NCBI GenBank assembly: GCA_050253415.1
Contig: JBFWJC010000002.1
Coordinates: 128,001 to 192,000 of the forward strand
Direction: 5' to 3'
From: Pedobacter sp.
GTDB taxonomy: Bacteria > Desulfobacterota > Desulfuromonadia > Desulfuromonadales > Syntrophotaleaceae
DNA: 64,000 bases
Part shown: piece after piece, positions 32,663 through 54,262 of the stretch
How the letters are laid out: every line of letters begins with the position of its first letter
Position numbering within the stretch: position 1 is the stretch's first letter
The notes under the pieces: generated by a model
What the model saw: only the letters and a program-made list of their open reading frames with translations
The model's database searches: none
What the model was told of the DNA's origin: nothing
Program-made: the position numbers and the translations under genes

Positions 32663-32724
32663 CCAGCCCATCGCTACACGAGATTCCTGGTTTCTTCAGG
32701 AAGCACGCTCGGGTGTGATAGTAT

Positions 32725-32755
32725 TCCCTGGTAGCTCAGTTGGTAGAGCGAGTGA
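32725..32755 (+). pseudogene. 5' half of a tRNA (probably tRNA-Asn) interrupted at the anticodon arm; left prophage junction
   Basis: TCCCTGG-TA-GCTC-AGTTGGTA-GAGC-G-AGTGA gives acceptor 5' strand, D arm and anticodon 5' strand; no T-arm or 3' acceptor follows. Asn is inferred from the U1-C2-C3 start only. Confidence 0.8.
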
Positions 32756-32770
32756 TCGCCTAAAAATAAT

Positions 32771-32806
32771 AAAAGCCCGCAGGTTGTTGAATCTGCGGGC
32801 TTTTTT
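32771..32806. terminator. Bidirectional intrinsic terminator at the prophage left end
   Basis: AAAAGCCCGCAG-gttgttgaat-CTGCGGGCTTTTTT, with A/T tracts on both sides. Confidence 0.85.
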
Positions 32807-32901
32807 GCGTCTTTTTGGCTACAAGGCAGTTTTTGTCTTTGCGGTTAAATCGTCTTTTCTGTTGTAAAAACAGTAAGTTACAATTTGTAGACCTGTGCCG
32901 T

Positions 32902-34380
32902 TTAGCTGCTTTTGGTGGGTGCTTTTGGGCCTTTTTTGGCTGCTGGCAAGTGGATCCTGGCGGTGTGTTCCCCGGCGGCGTTCCTCGGGAACGGGTAGGT
33001 TATGAGCGCGTAGCTGCTGTATAGGCTGACCTTGGTTATGGCGACGGACAGGACTTTGCGCTGCTCCGTTTCGCTGAGCAGGTCGAACTCTTCCCGGGTG
33101 ATGGACAGGGCATCCCAGTCGGGTTGATCCGGTCGGGTGGCTTCGATCTTGCGCCGACGCTCGCGCAGTGCGCCGATGGATGCTTCAATGTCCTGCATTT
33201 TTGCCCGGGCGTCTTCCATGCGCAGGATCCCGTCTGCGATGGCAGCGACCAGGTTATTCTTGCGCTGTTGTTCCTGGTGTTCTTCGCGGTCGATGGCTGC
33301 GAGCTGCTCTGAGGTGGTGTCCTGGCTCTGGGAGGCATGCCACCATGTTTTAAGTTTATCGGTGCTGCTCAGCGTACCGAAAAGGTTGGTGAGCACGCGC
33401 TCGTTGAGGGTGTGCTGTGGGATCATTCTGGACCGGTCGCATGCTCCTGCCGTGTTTTTGGAGCGGCAGCCATAGTAATCGATGCGCGTGCCGTCGTTGC
33501 GGGTGCGACTGTTGCGCCAGGTCTTGACGGTGAGATCGCAATAGCCGCAGCGCAGCAGGTCCAGGTTGGACAAGAGGGCCGCGGCTTCGCGTTTGACGCC
33601 GTTGGTCTTGCGGGTGCGTCGACTGGATCGGATGCGATCGGCTTGCTCGGCGTCCATGACGGGAGTCCAGGACCCTGCGACGATGTCGCCTGTCTCCGGG
33701 TCTTTACGCAGCGCTTGATAAAAGAGCAGTCTATCGTCGGATATGATGCGGCGGATGGAGATCTCCGCACGGCCGAGTTGTTCGGCGATGGCTTTGGCAC
33801 TGTTGGTTTCGGCCAGTTGCCAGATATGTTGACATTCGGCGAGTTGGTCGGTGTCAATCTCTACTTCGCCGGTGTTGCGATCGTAGCGGTATGGGGGTGG
33901 CGCTTTTCCGCCAAGCCATTTACCGGCGCGCAGTGCTTCGCGGCGGCCTTCTGCCATGCGGGCCTGCAGCACCTTCATTTCGACGGAGGAAAAACCGCCC
34001 TCCATCAGCAGGAGCATCCAGTCGCTGTGCTGCTTGGGGTCGAGGCTGCGTGATGGTGTTGCCAGTTTGACGCCGTGTTCGGCGCAGAGATTGAGCCAGC
34101 TGAGATAGTCGGCGAGGGTGTCGTCGCGGCTCAGGCGTGATAGTTCGATGACCAGGATCATGCCTATCTTGCCGGCACGTACGTCAGACTCAAGGCGTGC
34201 GCGTTCGCGCAGATCTTCGACCTTACCCTTGGCAGCACTGGCATGGCCGTCGTCATAGACTTCGACCTGCCATCCCTGCGATGAGGCGTAGGCCGGCAGC
34301 TGCTCGCGTTGGACGGTGAGCCGGTGGGATGGTTTGTTTTTGTCTTCGCGGGATTTGCGTATGTAGACTGCTGCGATCAT
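32902..34380 (-). CDS. Large serine recombinase (phage integrase)
   Basis: YIRKS catalytic Ser, ELSRLSR, GKWLGG..PPPY recombinase domain, LRCGYC...YYGC Zn ribbon, coiled coil. Confidence 0.92.
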   Translation of the reverse strand: MIAAVYIRKSREDKNKPSHRLTVQREQLPAYASSQGWQVEVYDDGHASAAKGKVEDLRERARLESDVRAGKIGMILVIELSRLSRDDTLADYLSWLNLCAEHGVKLATPSRSLDPKQHSDWMLLLMEGGFSSVEMKVLQARMAEGRREALRAGKWLGGKAPPPYRYDRNTGEVEIDTDQLAECQHIWQLAETNSAKAIAEQLGRAEISIRRIISDDRLLFYQALRKDPETGDIVAGSWTPVMDAEQADRIRSSRRTRKTNGVKREAAALLSNLDLLRCGYCDLTVKTWRNSRTRNDGTRIDYYGCRSKNTAGACDRSRMIPQHTLNERVLTNLFGTLSSTDKLKTWWHASQSQDTTSEQLAAIDREEHQEQQRKNNLVAAIADGILRMEDARAKMQDIEASIGALRERRRKIEATRPDQPDWDALSITREEFDLLSETEQRKVLSVAITKVSLYSSYALITYPFPRNAAGEHTARIHLPAAKKGPKAPTKSS

Positions 34381-42496: not shown

Positions 42497-42798
42497 ATGA
42501 TCATATGATTATCGAAAAGACGTCAAATAATCATCATCATGGTTGTAACTATCCGGAAACACACAGGAATGATGCCGAATATGATCATATGATGATAATC
42601 CACAGAACTAGCTCTTCGCGTGCGCGTGCGCGCGCGTTAAGTATAAGCACTCCGTTATAGTCTGATTATTTTTTTATATTTCAAAGTTACTAGGAAAATA
42701 ATCATATCGTCATAATCGACCAAAAAAGAAAAGAAAAACAAACACTTAAAACCATGATGATGATTTTGAAGGAAAAAACACGATAATCATCATCATGG
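42497..42798. other. Probable phage replication origin
   Basis: AT-rich non-coding stretch between helicase and primase with repeated ATCATCATCATGG / TGATCATATGAT motifs in both orientations. Confidence 0.6.
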
Positions 42799-46863: not shown

Positions 46864-46888
46864 TCCCGCCGCCGTGGTGGCGGCGGGA
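46864..46888 (+). terminator. GC-rich hairpin immediately before the cassette array
   Basis: TCCCGCCGCC-gtggt-GGCGGCGGGA, weak U-tract. Confidence 0.45.
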
Positions 46889-46893
46889 AGATT

Positions 46894-46995
46894 TTGAAAC
46901 GCCAAGGTAAGACGCGCCGCACTTCCGACGGCGCACCACTAAATTTAACGCGAACCTGCCAGCTATTGCGCGTCGTCTTGACCGGCTGGTTGTGC
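46894..46995 (-). other. attC-like site 1
   Basis: + strand: TTGAAAC-GCCAA-GGTAAGAC ... GTCTTGACC-GGCTG-GTTGTGC; one extra base in the right inner box. Confidence 0.8.
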
Positions 46996-47013: not shown

Positions 47014-47253
47014 ATGAAGATCTGGTTTGTAGGAAAGCCGATTGTTGTTGATGGAGAAGAACTTGGCTGGATGCCGGAAGGGGCTTTTGAGACAGAAGAG
47101 GAGGCGGCGAAGGTTGCCACAGATGCCGAATTTATCGTACTGGCCGAGGTTGGAGGAAGATTTCCAGAAAAAGCCACAGATGCCGAAAAGCTGTATTACC
47201 CGAAACTGGAGCGGTGGGAGGATAGCGCCCTTTACAAGATGCGGAATCAGTAA
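47014..47253 (+). CDS. Cassette 1 hypothetical protein
   Basis: GGAGGAG RBS; flanked by GTTGTGC / GAACAAC. Confidence 0.75.
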   Translation: MKIWFVGKPIVVDGEELGWMPEGAFETEEEAAKVATDAEFIVLAEVGGRFPEKATDAEKLYYPKLERWEDSALYKMRNQ

Positions 47254-47255
47254 GG

Positions 47256-47330
47256 GAACAACGCCTGCCGATCAGCGGTGAACGAAGGAGCGCAGCGGAT
47301 GAGTTATCCGCTGCATGGGCCTTGTTAAAC
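47256..47330 (-). other. attC-like site 2
   Basis: GAACAAC...GATCAGCGG...GCGCAGC...CCGCTGCATG...GTTAAAC. Confidence 0.78.
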
Positions 47331-47350: not shown

Positions 47351-47737
47351 ATGACACGATTTAAATTTAGAGCATGGGACTCCGTGAACAAGGAAATGCT
47401 TGACGCAAATACTGGATGTTTTTTCTACGAAGAAGACAACGGTTTCCATTGTGGATACCTGGCTGGTGTCAACGCTCCTGCTGATGTTGCGGGGGATTGG
47501 GTTGAATGCCCTGTGATGCAATGGACCGGGATCCGTGACAAAAACGGCATCGAGATTTACGAGGGTGACATTGTAAACCTTGACACTCTTTGCAAATACG
47601 AAGGCGGTGGGACTATTTGGAGAATTAAGCCGCACAAGGTTGTTTTTGAACGCCAGAGATGGCTCCCGGATAGACTGTCGGAGTCTGAAATTATTGGCAA
47701 CATCTACGAACACCCTGAGCTGGTCGGGGCAGTTTAA
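47351..47737 (+). CDS. Cassette 2: YopX-family protein
   Basis: KFRAWD, MQWTGIRDKNG.EIYEGDIV, EIIGNIYEHPEL. Confidence 0.88.
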   Translation: MTRFKFRAWDSVNKEMLDANTGCFFYEEDNGFHCGYLAGVNAPADVAGDWVECPVMQWTGIRDKNGIEIYEGDIVNLDTLCKYEGGGTIWRIKPHKVVFERQRWLPDRLSESEIIGNIYEHPELVGAV

Positions 47738-47865
47738 CGCTTGAGATCACGGGATTGCGGAGGAAACTATGACAATTGATATGGATATGCCATTTGGCGA
47801 GTTTGCACGGAAACACCTTGATACCGGCGCGGGTAGCAATTCCGCTGTGGATCGACTGGTTAAAT
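47732..47865 (-). other. attC-like site 3 (contains RBS and start of cassette 3 gene)
   Basis: GTTTAAC-GCTTGA-GATCACGGGATTGC ... GCAATTCCGCTGTGGATC-GACTG-GTTAAAT. Confidence 0.8.
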
Positions 47866-48164
47866 CGCCGCCGGTAGTCTGCCTGTGCGGATCTACTCGT
47901 TTTTTCGATGCGTTCAGAGACGCGAATCGCGCCGAAACGATGGAGGGAAAGATCGTGCTTGCTCCCGGAGTGTTTGGCCATTGCGGCGATCCATTGACTG
48001 ACGACGATAAGTTGCGGCTAGATATTTTGCACTATTGGAAAATTGACCTGGCCGACGAGGTGCTTGTGCTCAATGTTGGCGGGTACATTGGCAGCAGCAC
48101 CCAAAACGAAATCGAGTATGCCAAGCGAACCGGGAAACCTGTGCGCTTTCTTGAGGCGATTTAA
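47769..48164 (+). CDS. Cassette 3: nucleoside 2-deoxyribosyltransferase-like fold protein
   Basis: VCLCGSTRF, KIDLADEVLVLNVGGYIGSST..EIEYAK..GKPV. Confidence 0.7.
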   Translation: MTIDMDMPFGEFARKHLDTGAGSNSAVDRLVKSPPVVCLCGSTRFFDAFRDANRAETMEGKIVLAPGVFGHCGDPLTDDDKLRLDILHYWKIDLADEVLVLNVGGYIGSSTQNEIEYAKRTGKPVRFLEAI

Positions 48165-48218
48165 CGACTTAGTATGAGCGCGCCTGCGTAGCAGGTCCGC
48201 TCGATGCGCTGGTTCTAA
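48159..48218 (-). other. attC-like site 4
   Basis: ATTTAAC...TATGAGCG-CGCCTGCGTAGCAGGTC-CGCTCGATG-CGCTG-GTTCTAA. Confidence 0.82.
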
Positions 48219-48252
48219 AGGGTTTTCGCGCTCGGCGAAGCCGATAGGGGGT

Positions 48253-49110
48253 TTGATTGTGGGTTTATTTGAGACAACAGAAGAAGAACTGTACCAGATC
48301 GCCATAAGTCGGCCGCTTGAAGAGAAGATTGATCAGGCAATCTCTCTTATCCAGGCGACTGAAGGCCAAGCGTTGAAATTATCTGATGATGGCTTTTACG
48401 TCTGCTTTTCTGGGGGGAAAGACAGCATTGTCATGGCTCGGTTGTTTGAGATGGCCGGTGTTAAATTTGGCCTACATTACAACAATGTGACAATCGATCC
48501 TCCCGAACTGGTTCGGTTTATCAAGGAAGAATATCCCCATGCGGAATGGCATTCTGTCGGCAAGCACCTGATCAACTACATGGCCGAAGACAAGGTTTGC
48601 GGTCCCCCAACGCGGCTAATTCGCTGGTGTTGCGAGATTTACAAAGAGCAAGGTGGGGTTGATAAATTCCGGGCAATAGGGGTGAGGGCCGAAGAGTCCG
48701 CCAGGCGGAAGGGGTTGTGGAAGCAGATTACCACTGACAGGAAAACGAAGATGCCGATTTTATGCCCCATTTTGTATTGGACACATGCCGACATCTGGGC
48801 ATTCATCAAGCAGCATGACATGCCGTATTGCTGCTTGTATGACGAGGGTTTTGACCGCCTGGGCTGTGTCGGGTGCCCAATGGGAGGACCAAAAGGGCAA
48901 GCCCGCGATTTCGCCCGCTGGCCGAAATATGAAGCGATGTGGAAGCGTGGATTCAGGAAGTATTTTGACAAGTACAAGGGCGTTCCGAAGCGCAACGGGG
49001 AGCCTCGGGCAATCGAAAAATTCCCAACCGTAGACGACCTGTGGAATTGGTGGATAAGCGGCAAAGCCTATGAAGGCGACAATCCGGATTGCCAACTGTG
49101 GCTGTGGTAG
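48253..49110 (+). CDS. Cassette 4: PAPS-reductase-family (PP-loop) protein
   Basis: CFSGGKDS, RWCCEIYKE, GVRAEES..R, PILYWT..DIW, RLGCVGCP. Confidence 0.88.
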   Translation: MIVGLFETTEEELYQIAISRPLEEKIDQAISLIQATEGQALKLSDDGFYVCFSGGKDSIVMARLFEMAGVKFGLHYNNVTIDPPELVRFIKEEYPHAEWHSVGKHLINYMAEDKVCGPPTRLIRWCCEIYKEQGGVDKFRAIGVRAEESARRKGLWKQITTDRKTKMPILCPILYWTHADIWAFIKQHDMPYCCLYDEGFDRLGCVGCPMGGPKGQARDFARWPKYEAMWKRGFRKYFDKYKGVPKRNGEPRAIEKFPTVDDLWNWWISGKAYEGDNPDCQLWLW

Positions 49111-49128
49111 GTTTTGCGCGAAAAGACT

Positions 49129-49230
49129 TTAGAACGATCATGGTCAGCGACGGTGTGAGAACGGACGCGCCGCACCGACCTAAACGAGAATCGCCGCAGG
49201 TCTTCCGTTCGCTGGACCTGCTGGTTAGAT
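49129..49230 (-). other. attC-like site 5
   Basis: TTAGAAC-GATCAT-GGTCAGCGACGG ... CCGTTCGCTGGACC-TGCTG-GTTAGAT; two unpaired bases (T, G) on the right arm. Confidence 0.85.
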
Positions 49231-49250
49231 TTCTTTCTATAGAGGAACTT

Positions 49251-49451
49251 ATGAAACCTAAATGCCCACATTGCGATCACCAGTTTGATGACGACCAAGT
49301 TTGGCACGGAAGCAACAACTGCGAATTCCCAACCGAGCGCGACGGTGATACGGGGGAATTCGACTGCCCGATCTGCGGGAAGCCGCTGTATGTTCGTATT
49401 GAATTCACCCCCGCATGGTACTTCACCGACGATAACGGCATTGAAATCTAA
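49251..49451 (+). CDS. Cassette 5: small Zn-finger protein
   Basis: MKPKCPHC...DCPICG; GAGG RBS. Confidence 0.75.
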   Translation: MKPKCPHCDHQFDDDQVWHGSNNCEFPTERDGDTGEFDCPICGKPLYVRIEFTPAWYFTDDNGIEI

Positions 49452-49531
49452 TAACAAAGATCAGCGGCGAAGGAGGCCGTAGCCTATGAAACTGAAGCGT
49501 TTATTTCGTCCGCTGTATTGGCTGGTTATGC
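49446..49531 (-). other. attC-like site 6 (left box ATCTAAT is degenerate; contains RBS and start of cassette 6 gene)
   Basis: ATCTAAT-AACAAA-GATCAGCGGCGAA ... TTCGTCCGCTGTATT-GGCTG-GTTATGC. Confidence 0.78.
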
Positions 49532-49695
49532 GCTGCACTGGAACTATTTATTTGGAACCTGGCCTTAGAGTAACCACTTCTGGCTGGGTGATTATTTCTG
49601 ACGGGAAATCGAAAGATGCTTTGCCTATCAGCCTCGTCTCGCAAGAGATTGTGGATAAGGTGGAAGCCAGTTTGGCAAGTTGGGGTTACACATAA
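49486..49695 (+). CDS. Cassette 6 hypothetical protein
   Basis: AGGAGG RBS inside the attC; stop TAA lies in the ACATAAC box. Confidence 0.65.
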   Translation: MKLKRLFRPLYWLVMRCTGTIYLEPGLRVTTSGWVIISDGKSKDALPISLVSQEIVDKVEASLASWGYT

Positions 49696-49744
49696 CGACT
49701 AGCTGACCGAGAGCGCAGCGATTCGGTCGAGCGGCTTGTTGTAA
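49690..49744 (-). other. attC-like site 7 (55 bp)
   Basis: ACATAAC-GACTA-GCTGACCG-AGAGCGCAGCGATT-CGGTCGAGC-GGCTT-GTTGTAA. Confidence 0.88.
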
Positions 49745-49756
49745 TGCGAGGGACCT

Positions 49757-50020
49757 ATGAAAAAGAACCGATTGGCCGCAAAGGAGTGGCGCGAAGAAGA
49801 TCAACGGAAAAAGAAGCAAGCTGAAGACATTGAGTACGCCACAAGCAAAACATACGACGCAGAAAAGCGCATCCGTGGCTTGAGTGCAACAATCGAGTAT
49901 GCCGGGCATCCAGAAATCGCAGAAAAGGTAGAGTCTGCGAGGTTGCTATTAGCAGAATCTTACGAAAATCTGCAAGCAATACAACGACTAGCTGACCGAG
50001 AGCGCAGCGATTCGGTCTAG
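49757..50020 (+). CDS. Cassette 7 hypothetical coiled-coil protein
   Basis: GAGG RBS; reads into attC8. Confidence 0.7.
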   Translation: MKKNRLAAKEWREEDQRKKKQAEDIEYATSKTYDAEKRIRGLSATIEYAGHPEIAEKVESARLLLAESYENLQAIQRLADRERSDSV

Positions 50021-50033
50021 CGGCTTGTTAGAC
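49979..50033 (-). other. attC-like site 8 (55 bp, near-identical to site 7)
   Basis: ATACAAC-GACTA-GCTGACCG-AGAGCGCAGCGATT-CGGTCTAGC-GGCTT-GTTAGAC. Confidence 0.88.
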
Positions 50034-50048
50034 ATTAAATAAAGGAGC

Positions 50049-50243
50049 ATGAAAATGTTGATTACGTTTAAAGCAAGATGCCCTGAGTGCGGAGTGGATG
50101 GAAAACACACAGTGGAAATAGGACAAGACCTGCACCCGAAGAAGGTACTTCTTTGCGACACGGAAGTTGGAGGATGCGACTGTTATTTCGCAGCATTTAT
50201 AAACATAAGGGCCGAAGCTGAAACGGCAAAGATAGATGTCTAA
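50049..50243 (+). CDS. Cassette 8: small Cys-rich protein
   Basis: AAGGAG RBS; CPEC...LCD..GGC; stop lies in the GTCTAAC box. Confidence 0.75.
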   Translation: MKMLITFKARCPECGVDGKHTVEIGQDLHPKKVLLCDTEVGGCDCYFAAFINIRAEAETAKIDV

Positions 50244-50351
50244 CAGAGGTAACAATGGAAAATTTTCCACTTATCACCACGATTAAAGCCAAAAAGTGGA
50301 AAACAGCCGTCAACAAATGACAACAGCCAAATGACAAAGGACACCCCCTGA

Positions 50352-51101
50352 ATGTTCCAGCGCGCCCAACAACTCATCGACGTTGCCAGCCAGCACCAAA
50401 AAGCCGAACTGGTCACACTGCACAACGCCGTGCTCGAACGCATGGAAGCCTACAAGAAGGCCAGCACCGCCGCCAACAAGCGCGACTGGGCCGCCGCCAA
50501 AAAAGGCCTGCAGGAGTGCATCGACCAACTCTTGCCGGTGTACTTCCCCGAGCTGTCCGCCGCCGACCCGGAGGTGTTCGACACCCAAAAAGCCGCCCTC
50601 GCCTGGCTGCACAACCACTTCGGCAAACCGTACCCGTCCGCCGGCAAGTTCAGCCAGGATATCCGTGACGGGCTGTGCCTGCAGCAGCAGAACAAAACCA
50701 TCCTGCGCAAGGATCTCAAAAAATACGCCGAGGTCATCGGCCATGACAAGCAGGCCGCCGCCGCCTCGGCCAGCCAAGCCGAAAAACGCGAAAAGCTCGA
50801 AATCGAAAAGCTGGAGCTGGATGTCGAAAAACGCCGGATGGAAAACCGCAAGGAGGACAAAAACTGGATCGCCCGCGACACCGTCTTCGAACGCGAAGGC
50901 GCCCTTGTCGGTCAGATCATGGGCGAAGCCCGCCATCACCTCGGCCGCGCCGTACCCGCCGTGATCCATGCCGCCAAAGGCGACCCCGAGCGCACCCCGG
51001 AGATCAAAAAAATTATCGAAGAAGCCCTGTTCGACGCCTTCCGCTCCCTGTATGAATCCGGCGAAGTCGACATGACCTTTTTGCAAGAAGAAGAGGACTG
51101 A
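50352..51101 (+). CDS. Probable terminase small subunit
   Basis: Coupled (TGATG) to the large terminase; central coiled coil EKREKLEIEKLELDVEKRRME as in Nu1-like proteins. Confidence 0.6.
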   Translation: MFQRAQQLIDVASQHQKAELVTLHNAVLERMEAYKKASTAANKRDWAAAKKGLQECIDQLLPVYFPELSAADPEVFDTQKAALAWLHNHFGKPYPSAGKFSQDIRDGLCLQQQNKTILRKDLKKYAEVIGHDKQAAAASASQAEKREKLEIEKLELDVEKRRMENRKEDKNWIARDTVFEREGALVGQIMGEARHHLGRAVPAVIHAAKGDPERTPEIKKIIEEALFDAFRSLYESGEVDMTFLQEEED

Positions 51102-53077
51102 TGCAAACCGCCCTGGCCGCCGACATCTTTGCCCAGCCCCTGCCCGAGTTTTTCCCCGAGCAGCTGCGCCACGCCTGCAGCGGTAAACGCATCCGCTACA
51201 CGCTGCCGCGCTCCGTGCGCGAACGCATGCAAATACCCGAAGACATCACCGTCAGCCAATGGGCCGAAAAATACCGCCGCGTCACCGCCATCGACGCCGA
51301 GCCAGGCCGCTGGCGCATCGACCGCGTCCCCCACACCAAAAAACTCATGGACATGATCAGCCTGCCGTGGGTCAAGGAATTCTGGCTGTGCATGGTCGAG
51401 CGCGCCGCCAAAACCCAGATAGTGCTCAACGCCGCCTGCCGTCAGATCGACCGCGGCATAGACTCCGGCAACGTATTTTGGCTCATGCCAAGCGAAGCCG
51501 ACGCCAAAAAAGCCCTCAGCGAACGCATCATACCCGTACTCAAAGAGAGCCCCCGCATGGCTCGGCTGCTGTCGCGCTACGCCGACGACACCACCAGCAC
51601 CAAGATCCGCTTTAAACACGGACCGCGCCTGTTTCCCGCCTGGTCCAACAGCCCCGGCTCCATCGCCTCGTTTTACGGCAAGCTCAACATCGGCGATGAG
51701 ATCGACAAATACGGCGACCGCTCCGGCGGCGAAACCGACCCCATTACCCTGCTCAAAAAACGCGGCCGCGACAGCGACGAATCCAAATTCCTGTTTGCCA
51801 GCACCCCCGCCGGTAAATTTATATACAAAGGCACCATGGCCTGCCAGCAAGTCTGGACCTACAAAAACCGCTGCCCCCATTGCGGTGAATACATCCTGAT
51901 GGACGCCGATCATTTCATGCTACCCGAAGGCGCCACCCAGGAGACCATCAAACACGGCGAGCACCCCGTCACCTACGCCTGCAACGACTGCGGCGTAGAA
52001 TGGGACGAAACCGACCGCAAAACCGCCTACCAAAACGGCGACTGGTTCGCCATCAAAGGCGCCGATGTCGAGCGGCCCACCACCATCGGAGCCTGGTTGC
52101 CGGCCTTCCCGCTGCCCAACATCCCCATGGCCGAGATCGGCGCCGCCATCGCCCGCGCCAACACCGGAGATCTCGCCGGTAAGATGGACCTCGCCCACGG
52201 CTATAAAGCCGTCGACTACGAAGCCGAAAACAAAGACCGGCAAGAAGACGCCATCCTGCTGCTGCGCGACGACCGCCCGGCAGGCATGATCCCCACCGAA
52301 GCCAACGGCCTCGAAATATCCATCGACACCCAGGATAACGGCTTCTGGTATCGCATCCGCGCCTGGCGTTACGGCCTCGATCTCAAAAGCTGGCTTGTCA
52401 AAGCCGGATATGTGCCCAGTGCCAACGCCGCCGACTTTGCCGCCCTCGATGATCTCATCGCGGCCGAATACCCCGACACCAACGGCGAGCCCCACCGCAT
52501 TATGGCCGGCATCATCGACAGCGCCGGGCATCGCACCAGCGAAGTCTACGCCTGGTGCCGCCGCACCGGAATCATACCAGCCAAAGGTGCCCAAGGCCGC
52601 AAGACCCAGCCCGTCACCGTCAGCCGCATCGACCGTTTCCCCGGTGACAACAAACCGATCCCCGGCGGCCTCAACCTCTACCATATCGACACGCATTTTC
52701 ACAAAGACCAACTCGCCAACAAACTGCAGATCGACCCCTCCGATCCCGGCGCCCTGGTGCTGCACAGCGGCTATAGCCTTGACCAGCTCACAGCCCTGCA
52801 CCGCGATCCAAACGGTAAACAAGCCCACAACCTGGAGGAATACGCCCGCCAGATGTGCGTCGAATACCGCGACGAGCGCGGCCTGTGGCAATGCCCCGAC
52901 GGCAAAGCCAATCACCTGTGGGATTGTGAAAACAACGGCCTCGCCCTGGTCATGTACCTGGGTTGGCAGCACAAAGGCAGCGTAAAAAAGAAGCCCGCCA
53001 CCAACGGACTCAAACCCAAAGACACCGCACCAGCCGCCACCAGCCGCGACCTTCCGGCATGGTATCGCAACCGCTAA
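51101..53077 (+). CDS. Terminase large subunit, lambda GpA family
   Basis: TVSQWAEKYR, GDEIDKY, FASTP, CPHCG/CNDCG, IDTQ, IDSAG, NHLWDC. Confidence 0.9.
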   Translation: MQTALAADIFAQPLPEFFPEQLRHACSGKRIRYTLPRSVRERMQIPEDITVSQWAEKYRRVTAIDAEPGRWRIDRVPHTKKLMDMISLPWVKEFWLCMVERAAKTQIVLNAACRQIDRGIDSGNVFWLMPSEADAKKALSERIIPVLKESPRMARLLSRYADDTTSTKIRFKHGPRLFPAWSNSPGSIASFYGKLNIGDEIDKYGDRSGGETDPITLLKKRGRDSDESKFLFASTPAGKFIYKGTMACQQVWTYKNRCPHCGEYILMDADHFMLPEGATQETIKHGEHPVTYACNDCGVEWDETDRKTAYQNGDWFAIKGADVERPTTIGAWLPAFPLPNIPMAEIGAAIARANTGDLAGKMDLAHGYKAVDYEAENKDRQEDAILLLRDDRPAGMIPTEANGLEISIDTQDNGFWYRIRAWRYGLDLKSWLVKAGYVPSANAADFAALDDLIAAEYPDTNGEPHRIMAGIIDSAGHRTSEVYAWCRRTGIIPAKGAQGRKTQPVTVSRIDRFPGDNKPIPGGLNLYHIDTHFHKDQLANKLQIDPSDPGALVLHSGYSLDQLTALHRDPNGKQAHNLEEYARQMCVEYRDERGLWQCPDGKANHLWDCENNGLALVMYLGWQHKGSVKKKPATNGLKPKDTAPAATSRDLPAWYRNR

Positions 53078-53087
53078 GGAGACCACC

Positions 53088-53306
53088 ATGACACCACCGC
53101 AAATATACCGCCGCAAAGACATGCTCACCGTCGCCCAATTCGCCAAAGTCATCGGCATGAGCCGTAGTTTTGCCTATCAACTGGTCGAGCGCGGACCGCA
53201 AGAAGGCGGCGTTCTGGCGTTTCGTTATGGCAAGACAAAAGGGCTTAGGGTGCCGGCGGAAGAGGTGACGCGATATCAGCAGGAGAGAAAGGTTGTTGAG
53301 GTATAA
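53088..53306 (+). CDS. Small winged-HTH (excisionase/HTH_17-like) protein
   Basis: MLTVAQFAKVIGMSRSFAYQLVERG...LRVPAEEV; AAGGAG RBS. Confidence 0.8.
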   Translation: MTPPQIYRRKDMLTVAQFAKVIGMSRSFAYQLVERGPQEGGVLAFRYGKTKGLRVPAEEVTRYQQERKVVEV

Positions 53307-53360
53307 CGGATTTGAGGTGTGCGGCGAGCGTAGCGAGTCCACACCAGCGAAGGGTTATGA
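53301..53360 (-). other. attC-like site 9 (solo cassette)
   Basis: GTATAAC-GGATTT-GAGGTGTG...GAGCGTAGCGA...CACACCAGC-GAAGG-GTTATGA. Confidence 0.75.
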
Positions 53361-54187
53361 TGCCCATGCAGAAACAGCGAATCATACGGGTTTTTCCGAG
53401 ACGGACAGCGGCCACGCCAGATGATGATCTGGTGAGGATCGCCACAACGCCCGGCCTCTTTGACGAAGCCGATGAAGTGCATGTGTCGGTGACGTTTACT
53501 TGGGATTTACCCCTTGTCGAAAAACTGGCGAAAGCCTGGGAGCCGGTGGCTCCTGTGACGATCGGAGGCCCGGCGACGGGAGAAGCTGGGGGGGATTTTA
53601 CCCCTGGCTTGTACGTCAAAAAAGGCTACGTACTCACCTCTCGCGGCTGCCCGAACAACTGCTGGTTTTGTTCCGTGCCAAAACGTGAAGGCCCGTTGCG
53701 GGAATTGCCGATCACCGAAGGCTGGAACGTCCTCGATGACAACTTGTTGGCATGCTCTGACGATCATGTCCGGAGAGTGTTCGAGATGCTGTATGGCCAG
53801 AAGAAAAACGGACGGATTCAATTTACTGGCGGACTGGAAGCTGCCCGCCTCAAACCCTGGCACGTTGAAGCCCTGCGGGGATTGAGGCCGAAACAGATGT
53901 TCTTTGCGTACGACACGCCCGACGATCTGGAACCGCTGCAGGACGCTGGTAGGATGCTGTTGGATGCTGGCTTTACGATCACAAGTCACGCCCTTCGGGC
54001 CTATGTGTTGTGCGGCTGGCCGAAGGATAGTTTTGAGGCGGCAGGCCGCAGGATGCAACAAACGATAGACGCCGGTTTCATGCCGATGGCGATGCTTTAC
54101 CGTGGCGTAGCCGGCAAACGTGATACGGAGTGGATGCGCTGGCAACGGGAATGGGCGAGACCAGCCATAATTGCCAAGGCATCATAA
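53357..54187 (+). CDS. Cassette 9: radical SAM protein
   Basis: TSRGCPNNCWFC (CxxxCxxC), LDDNLLA; flanked by GTTATGA / TCATAAC. Confidence 0.85.
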   Translation: MMPMQKQRIIRVFPRRTAATPDDDLVRIATTPGLFDEADEVHVSVTFTWDLPLVEKLAKAWEPVAPVTIGGPATGEAGGDFTPGLYVKKGYVLTSRGCPNNCWFCSVPKREGPLRELPITEGWNVLDDNLLACSDDHVRRVFEMLYGQKKNGRIQFTGGLEAARLKPWHVEALRGLRPKQMFFAYDTPDDLEPLQDAGRMLLDAGFTITSHALRAYVLCGWPKDSFEAAGRRMQQTIDAGFMPMAMLYRGVAGKRDTEWMRWQREWARPAIIAKAS

Positions 54188-54262
54188 CATCCTTTAACCA
54201 GCCCACAATGACAGTTACCCATATAATTATTTTAGGCAAAACCGCAAAAACCTAAAAAAGTT

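Follow-up and report, generated by a model that had tools for sequence, protein, structure and literature searches.

Prophage, cassette island and host integron

The stretch of DNA analysed here (the window, 64 kb; G000:C2:128001-192000) contains chromosomal genes from base 1 to ~32.8 kb and, from 32.9 kb on, a lambda-like prophage with a serine recombinase (32902-34380), regulators of the CI/CII type, a D5-type primase-helicase, a gpA terminase (51101-53077), a lambda-type portal, a protease, a decoration protein and capsid E. A 3.5-kb island (46.9-50.3 kb), located between the replication genes and the terminase, has a GC content of 0.50 and a positive GC skew, against 0.56-0.66 and a negative skew in its flanks. 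The island holds eight small open reading frames (ORFs) on the + strand with hairpin repeats (from ..AAC to GTT..) in between, and a ninth repeat plus a radical-SAM gene are found after the terminase, at 53.3-54.2 kb. We consider it very probable that the island and the cassette at 53.3-54.2 kb represent a cluster of attC sites lacking an integron integrase (CALIN) that is provided with a copy of attI, and in which the genes are antisense to their attC sites and each attC lies at the 5' end of the cassette of its own gene. This reading is firmest with respect to the sites themselves, their orientation, the positions of the Shine-Dalgarno (SD) sequences and start codons, and the recurrence of the layout in related prophages.

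With regard to the features by which a CALIN in a phage is recognized, at least two attC sites are present, no intI gene lies nearby and phage families are found on both sides. No match to the integron integrase model TIGR02249 was obtained within the window. The host genome does encode a full-length integron integrase on another contig (C1:1750302-1751246; TIGR02249 447.6 bits, cut-off 265), flanked by an attI region and a cassette array that reaches the contig end. In all, 45 attC-model matches at E<=0.01 were recovered from the host genome, distributed over about nine arrays and accompanied by one full intI only. Arrays were located at C1:336-342 kb, C1:3.8-7.1 kb, C8:108-117 kb, C3:107-108 kb, C5:16-18 kb, C2:110-119 kb and C2:471 kb, and on C16; one of them lies 9-18 kb ahead of the window start, and a partial intI-like match (C2:470321-470557) is found beside one attC. 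In the array beside intI (G000:C1; locus L089, 427-1811), the first cassette after attI is duplicated farther down, from 4527 onward, where the sequence following GTTGGAC repeats the sequence that follows attI.

Identification of the repeats as attC sites

The attC sites were recognized with a covariance model (R1) that was built from nine attCs, all taken from the array next to the intI gene of the host, in which the identity of the top strand is certain. Its structure was written by hand, and the model was run unfiltered, on both strands, over all 64 kb. R1 returned all eight repeats of the island (S1-S8) with 55.4 to 15.2 bits (E 2.8e-11 to 0.4), exclusively on the minus strand and none on the plus strand, and beyond these eight gave three weak matches only (E 3.5-7.9), outside the array. 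Two of these weak matches, at 32758-32817 and 42584-42682, resemble a terminator-like hairpin and AT-rich DNA, respectively, and were rejected as attCs.

From left to right, S1 (46894..46995, 102 nt; 34.1 bits, E 6.4e-06) forms the distal end of the array, has extra bases on the + strand 3' arm and goes with an ORF of 79 amino acids (aa). S2 (47256..47330, 75 nt; 15.2 bits, E 0.4) also obeys the box rule described below, S3 (47732..47865, 134 nt; 16.4 bits, E 0.19) belongs to a long subfamily of attCs, and S4 (48159..48218; 21.8 bits, E 0.0085) measures 60 nt. The best match is S5 (49129..49230, 102 nt; 55.4 bits, E 2.8e-11), the loop of which also resembles that of host chromosomal attCs. It is followed by S6 (49449..49531, 83 nt; 28.2 bits, E 0.0002) and by S7 (49690..49744; 24.5 bits) and S8 (49979..50033; 23.1 bits), both of 55 nt and identical to each other at 46/47 positions in blastn. 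The repeat after the terminase, denoted S10 (53301..53360, 60 nt, on the minus strand like the others), ends in a GTTATGA box that is perfectly complementary to TCATAAC at 54182. S3, S6 and S10 had been numbered attC3, attC6 and attC9 in a preliminary description of this DNA.

The terminal boxes ..AAC and GTT.. are present in 9/9 sites. Between adjacent sites, the variable letters of the 3' box complement those of the next 5' box at 3.25/4 positions on average, as compared to 1.44/4 for non-adjacent sites and 1.25/4 within one site, which can be taken as the footprint of cassette-by-cassette insertion. In the arm alignments the extrahelical bases occur on one arm only, and according to the R1 alignments the bulged positions are the same as in the host attCs. 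By these measures the island repeats are real attC sites and not chance hairpins.

Generic procedures performed less well. A strict RYYYAAC..GTTRRRY scan combined with minimum-free-energy (MFE) folding missed every site because the boxes are degenerate. MFE folds of the free strands often left the boxes unpaired, and RNAalifold yielded a poor consensus on four short sites. Arm-alignment scans, which were noisy (~17 hits outside arrays per 64 kb) and missed short sites, served as a screen only.

Orientation of the array and limits of the cassettes

In Nivina 2016 (PMC5027507), the recombining bottom strand is described as carrying 5'-AAC on the arm opposite the extrahelical bases, with the crossover in that AAC. 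On the + strand of the window the extra bases are located on the 3' arm, versus the 5' arm in the array beside intI. At the right end of the island no attC is found; instead, a GTCTAAC box is followed by a reversed copy of the host-type attI (50238..50304, minus strand), with a 12-mer palindrome (50257-50268), a GGTGATA motif and a GTGGAAAA repeat. The local alignment of this copy to the reverse complement of the host attI scored 47, against 15.9 +/- 2.5 (max 31) for shuffled sequences. The 12-mer palindrome has five copies in the 4.1 Mb of the genome, each at the start of an array: two in the attI beside intI, two heading other arrays and one in the prophage island. Every copy lies 12-13 nt from the GTT crossover with GGTGATA on its far side, and the position of GGTGATA relative to the 12-mer therefore fixes the direction of attI. 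The host genome as a whole has at least four such attI copies, each at the head of an array, and the copy in the island is situated directly upstream of a 249-aa gene that precedes the terminase.

The minus-strand matches, the asymmetry of the arms and the reversed attI together imply that the array reads attI first and then the cassettes, from right to left. Judged by these features, the + strand is the attC bottom strand, with the crossover at the stop codons, between TAA and C, and every attC is to be assigned to the same cassette as the downstream gene, the ORF on its right. The attCs had initially been taken for the 3' ends of the upstream cassettes; the strand of the R1 matches, the arm asymmetry and attI place them 5' of the downstream gene instead. 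Since attC lies at the 5' end of the cassette of the downstream gene, no gene is split by a recombination point. The complementarity between boxes fits either orientation and was not counted as evidence in this respect. As a consequence of the orientation, 0/8 genes of the prophage array are sense to their attC, whereas among the intervals between neighbouring attCs of the host chromosomal arrays, 28/29 have their longest ORF in the sense orientation.

For the radical-SAM cassette (53301-54188) the orientation, which we take to be as in the island, is weakly determined. No attC follows the radical-SAM gene, and an analogous minus-strand attC is found after the large terminase subunit (TerL) in a related locus, L195; both point in the same direction. 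The cassette follows the terminase and a 72-aa helix-turn-helix gene, whose stop codon is the TAA of the left box. Behind the right junction, TCATAAC, there is no attC or attI, as if the cassette had been inserted at a secondary site.

Starts and stops within the attC sites

The preliminary description had proposed that attC sites double as translation-initiation and coding sequence, and what it read from the DNA is confirmed. Within S3 an SD sequence (GGAGG, 47759-47763) and, at 5-nt spacing, the ATG at 47769 lie in the loop, and the site holds 97 nt of ORF, or ~32 codons ending in ..SNSAVDRLVK; the nearest in-frame upstream stop is the TGA at 47742. Within S6, AGGAGG (49471-49476) and the ATG at 49486, spaced by 9 nt, are likewise internal and encode MKLKRLFRPLYWLVM, and the 3' arm and GTTATGC box code for residues 8-16 of the resulting 69-aa protein. 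In S10, the ATG at 53357-53359 overlaps the GTTATGA box (53354-53360). On inspection, the dual role is well supported for S6, forced for S3 and plausible for the GTTATGA box. The more general claim that each cassette has its ribosome-binding site in a hairpin fails: only 2/9 sites have SD and start in the loop, in 1/9 the start is at the GTT box and in 6/9 SD and start follow 13-40 nt past the site.

Of the six latter ORFs, one without family (79 aa; 47014..47253) starts 19 nt past S1, with GGAGG 5 nt before the ATG, and a YopX gene (47351..47737; PF09643 E 4.9e-19, phrog_98 E 1.9e-28) follows S2. Behind S4 lies a gene of the PAPS-reductase family (48259..49110; PF01507 E 2.6e-22, phrog_424 E 2.9e-38), which starts ~40 nt past the site at GTG 48259 or TTG 48253. 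S5 precedes a Cys-rich, zinc-ribbon-like ORF (66 aa; 49251..49451) and S7 an ORF of 87 aa (49757..50020), which runs through the CAAC box of S8, such that its last 14 codons are attC S8; a single G/T difference between S7 and S8 makes the TAG that ends it. The cassette beside attI, the first of the array, carries a zinc-ribbon-like ORF of 62-64 aa (50055..50243). The two genes that start within a loop are a DUF4406-like gene behind S3 (131 aa; 47769..48164), with 6015 relatives, and the 69-aa ORF behind S6 (49486..49695), which belongs to a small phage protein family with the motif GWV(V/I)xSDG. The radical-SAM gene (53357..54187; phrog_9298 E 3.6e-17) starts at the GTT box of S10, with ATG 53357 or 53360. 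All of these ORFs are on the + strand.

The TAA of the AAC box ends ORFs at 47735, 48162, 49693, 50241, 53304 and 54185; for the YopX, DUF4406, 62-64-aa and radical-SAM genes the boxes read GTTTAAC, ATTTAAC, GTCTAAC and TCATAAC, respectively. Such stops had been noted for six cassettes, which is exact in five of them. The 66-aa ORF already ends at the first of the tandem TAAs in TAATAAC (49449), one codon ahead of the box TAA.

Homologous N-termini were compared for the embedded starts. A word-index search with the 69-aa protein had found itself only and a full HMMER search, against 1.84 billion representatives, was needed; it recovered 16 relatives at E<=1e-3. In 10/11 aligned relatives the N-terminus has the length of the long form that starts at 49486, and several begin with MK.KR... 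Moreover, eight viral loci (L170-L177) have ~32 residues before GWV(V/I)xSDG, like the long form. From these long N-termini it follows that the loop and 3' arm of S6 code for a conserved part of the protein, the long form of which is likely the true one.

The comparison gave a different outcome for DUF4406, as in most relatives only 3-5 codons precede the VVCLCGS core. No ATG, GTG or TTG is present between the end of S3 (47865) and this core, and therefore the start of the gene must be within the site, where only ATG 47769 has an SD. Two unrelated DUF4406 cassettes, on a 65-kb viral contig (L022) and on a metagenome contig (L093), also have an in-frame SD and ATG in the attC loop. The extensions are of different lengths, and in one of the cassettes the GTT box is read in another frame, which indicates that the extension is not conserved as protein. 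These two cassettes were read whole by eye, together with 14 upstream regions; an arm-alignment screen flagged 17/148 DUF4406 loci. R1 found attCs in 1/80 viral DUF4406 loci, and most DUF4406 genes are not in recognizable cassettes. For the radical-SAM gene, close homologues of 276 aa begin with MMPMQ or MMPHV according to their gene calls, matching ATG 53357, so that a start at the GTTATGA box is plausible. We infer that the embedded SDs and ATGs are the starts used.

Recurrence in related prophages and viral contigs

TerL relatives with 38-54% identity were found in 19 other genomes among the 232 of the same order that were searched; a contig search for them had given no confirmed locus. When R1 was run on 12 stretches around TerL relatives, 16 attCs were obtained in 6/12, all on the strand opposite TerL. 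Fifteen of these are located 0.3-3.3 kb upstream of TerL and one just after it. The other 6/12 stretches gave no match to R1, which is host-specific, and some of them are short contigs. An in-loop SD and start codon, in frame with the downstream ORF, is present in 5/16 of the relatives' sites and, together with the 2/9 of the window, in 7/25, where the starts in the relatives were picked by eye from the SD spacing and the counts, coming from kin, do not represent independent events.

Three of the five (L191, L192 and L195) form, together with S3, the long subfamily, whose members measure 100-135 nt and combine conserved arms with divergent loops. When IMG/VR was scanned for an 18-letter pattern of the 5' arm, five matches were obtained: four new members on viral contigs (L201-L204), two of which are nearly identical, and one chance match. 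In all eight members (S3, L191, L192, L195 and L201-L204) an SD and ATG lie 8-20 nt past the 5' arm, followed in frame by an ORF of at least 78 aa, and the proteins behind the eight attCs differ. Within the host genome the subfamily occurs once, in the prophage. The minus-strand attC just after TerL in L195 (12169-12630) precedes a DUF4406-like gene that has an SD and ATG of its own past the attC; the gene family is the same as in the S3 cassette of the window, at the other slot.

Translational coupling and transcription

For the embedded starts the distance from the upstream stop is 31 nt (47738-47768) and 34 nt (49452-49485), the other gaps being 34-140 nt; the overlap, or spacing of a few nucleotides, between stop and start by which coupling is recognized is thus not seen. 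Both genes have strong SDs of their own, GGAGG at 5 nt and AGGAGG at 9 nt. The RNA folds of five sites with flanks were no more stable than those of shuffled sequences (z -0.11 to -1.40), and the predicted accessibility of the embedded SDs was low (0.001), yet equally low for most non-embedded SDs. When the mRNA was blocked as far as position +15 of the upstream stop, the predicted accessibility of the SDs hardly changed (from 0.002 to 0.003 and from 0.000 to 0.001). The earlier suggestion that a terminating upstream ribosome opens the hairpin is not supported by these predictions, which are equilibrium models of naked RNA and neither prove nor exclude coupling. In class 1 integrons, attC stem-loops are an obstacle to ribosomes, which is relieved by short ORFs within attC or attI via termination-reinitiation (PMC8876359).

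Between the last phage early gene and S1, at 46866-46893, there is a GC-rich hairpin with a short run of T behind it. A consensus terminator scan did not call it, and a scan for promoters and terminators over 46.4-50.5 kb gave nothing exceeding shuffles. Where the prophage begins, on the side of the serine recombinase, the DNA at 32722-32757 resembles by eye the 5' part of a tRNA gene, broken at that point; ARAGORN reported no whole tRNA there.

Interpretation and alternative explanations

Read on the + strand, the mobile unit would comprise the C of the AAC box, the attC, a short leader, the gene and its stop, and would end with ..AA at the crossover in TAAC. Such an arrangement would leave little room, and the initiation region would consequently come to lie just after the attC (six cassettes), at the GTT box (one) or in the attC loop (the DUF4406 and 69-aa genes), in which case loop and 3' arm would be translated as the N-terminus of the protein. 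Transcription would run rightward from phage promoters, each cassette would initiate on its own SD, independent of an upstream ribosome, and the IntI of the host, encoded on another contig, may be what moves the cassettes.

Several observations weigh against this reading. S2 (E 0.4) and S3 (E 0.19) are weak under R1, which moreover is specific for this host, and the orientation of S10 is derived from a score of 8.2 bits on the minus versus 0.9 bits on the plus strand. Of the 11 relatives aligned with the 69-aa protein, one is short, and an alternative ATG is available at 49528 in the GTTATGC box. The N-terminal extension of DUF4406 is not conserved in the family and perhaps is tolerated rather than needed. 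The relatives' cassette ORFs are mostly without family (Pfam 0/18 convincing, PHROGs 3/17), and among the contigs of three sequencing runs that cover the stretch, in whole or in part, there was no excised circle, joint, empty site or array variant.

The interpretation given in the preliminary description, in which the array is oriented as usual, each attC forms the end of the upstream cassette and lends a ribosome-binding site, start and N-terminal codons to the next, and a terminating ribosome opens the hairpin, would account for the stops in the AAC box 31-34 nt ahead of the embedded starts. It has a precedent in the short ORFs of class 1 integron attC and attI (PMC8876359), and the box complementarity is compatible with it. 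Nevertheless it is very unlikely, as the host attC model recognizes the eight sites exclusively on the minus strand, the extra bases occupy the arm expected of a bottom strand and the array ends in a reversed attI rather than an attC. In addition, the DUF4406 and 69-aa genes would be cut at every recombination event, each is preceded by a strong SD of its own, the folds do not exceed shuffles in stability and, in the model, a parked ribosome does not free the SD. Another view would be that the repeats are not integron sites at all, and instead represent a phage intergenic repeat, terminators or targets of a phage recombinase that resemble attC. The window lacks intI, the prophage has a serine recombinase of its own (32902-34380) and the slot is likewise occupied in distant relatives, and still this view is highly implausible considering that the host attC model scores up to 55 bits in the island, a full-length intI is encoded in the genome (447.6 bits, cut-off 265), a copy of the host-type attI abuts the array and the hybrid boxes bear the footprint of cassette-wise insertion.

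A third possibility keeps the orientation and leaves the embedded ATGs unused, with the 69-aa protein starting at ATG 49528, DUF4406 at GTG 47847 or a non-canonical codon, and the in-loop SDs and ATGs as by-products. It is in line with the short N-termini of most DUF4406 relatives, 3-5 codons before the core, with the ATG in the GTTATGC box of L022, which would yield such a short form, with the one short relative of the 69-aa protein and with the predicted SD accessibility of 0.001. Low accessibility is however common to non-embedded SDs, ATG 49528 and GTG 47847 both lack an SD, and GTG 47847 is itself still within the attC. Given also the long N-terminus in 10/11 aligned relatives of the 69-aa protein and in L170-L177, and the in-frame SD and ATG that the long subfamily retains in 8/8 members despite divergent loops, we regard unused ATGs as unlikely. 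The antisense CALIN, in which every cassette has its attC in front of the gene, is the explanation that we prefer.

Relation to known systems and implications

Phage-borne integrons and CALINs are already in print (Qi et al. 2023, PMC9892861). That paper describes Shewanella prophage M16-3, in which a host-type attI heads a CALIN that has tail, capsid and terminase genes on its flanks. The present array resembles the arrays described there in being an attC cluster without integrase in a (pro)phage, with attCs of the host type. It differs from them, as far as they are described there, in that all genes are antisense, some attCs hold the SD, start and N-terminal codons of the gene, and slot and orientation recur in prophages whose TerL is only 38-54% identical. 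In the main text of the paper neither 'antisense' nor 'opposite' occurs.

SD sequences and starts inside an integron recombination site have been described for ORF-11 in attI1 (Hanau-Bercot) and for a short ORF within an attC (Jacquier 2009), as summarized in a review (PMC8876359). Shared with those cases is the idea that translation through the site counters the stem-loop. The known cases are short top-strand leaders that aid a separate downstream gene by termination-reinitiation, whereas the embedded start in the prophage array is the gene's own, lies on the bottom strand and leads directly into the coding sequence of the protein.

Toxin-antitoxin cassettes are often reversed. Cassettes that are not driven by the cassette promoter (Pc) of the integron include toxin-antitoxin modules with their own promoter and gene-less cassettes with antisense promoters, according to two papers (PMC9892861; bioRxiv 10.1101/2023.11.21.568050). 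The likeness is that expression of the cassette content does not depend on the direction of the array, or goes against it. Such cassettes form a minority within sense arrays, in contrast to the 8/8 antisense genes of the prophage array, for which expression would be driven by the phage.

In ordinary cassettes, stop codons are found inside the inverse core or core site. The prophage cassettes are alike in that the conserved TAA/TTA of the box doubles as stop codon. The prophage TAA is however the reverse reading of the core, which is cut between G and TTA, at the first bases of the cassette, so that the end of the gene coincides with the point of crossover. For ORF-11 the stop is placed at positions 3-5 of GTTRRRY in the review (PMC8876359). 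In the literature searched, in which subscription journals were mostly outside coverage, we found no array with all genes antisense to their attCs, no attC that contains a gene's own initiation region and N-terminal codons, whether in antisense cassettes or phage arrays, and no such array conserved at one slot of a phage lineage.

Tentatively, the above may be extended to a lineage of temperate phages that keeps an attI-type docking site upstream of the terminase and swaps phage-specific 'attC-first' cassettes there via the integrase of the host. The antisense genes would be silent from Pc in a chromosomal integron and expressed from phage promoters, and the long attC subfamily would constitute a portable initiation module that is fused to unrelated genes. 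This scenario is possible, though we would not call it probable.

attCs are usually taken as the non-coding 3' ends of cassettes; in the prophage, recombination hairpin, ribosome-binding site and coding sequence would be combined in one piece of DNA, which amounts to a compact dual constraint. When the orientation is assumed, cassette boundaries and gene starts are mis-assigned, and two genes then appear to be split by recombination points. In a wider sense, if the reading is true, integron recombination would be a route for phages to swap accessory genes (YopX, PAPS-reductase, radical-SAM, DUF4406), drawing on a cassette pool that would be designed to be expressed from the phage rather than from the host integron.

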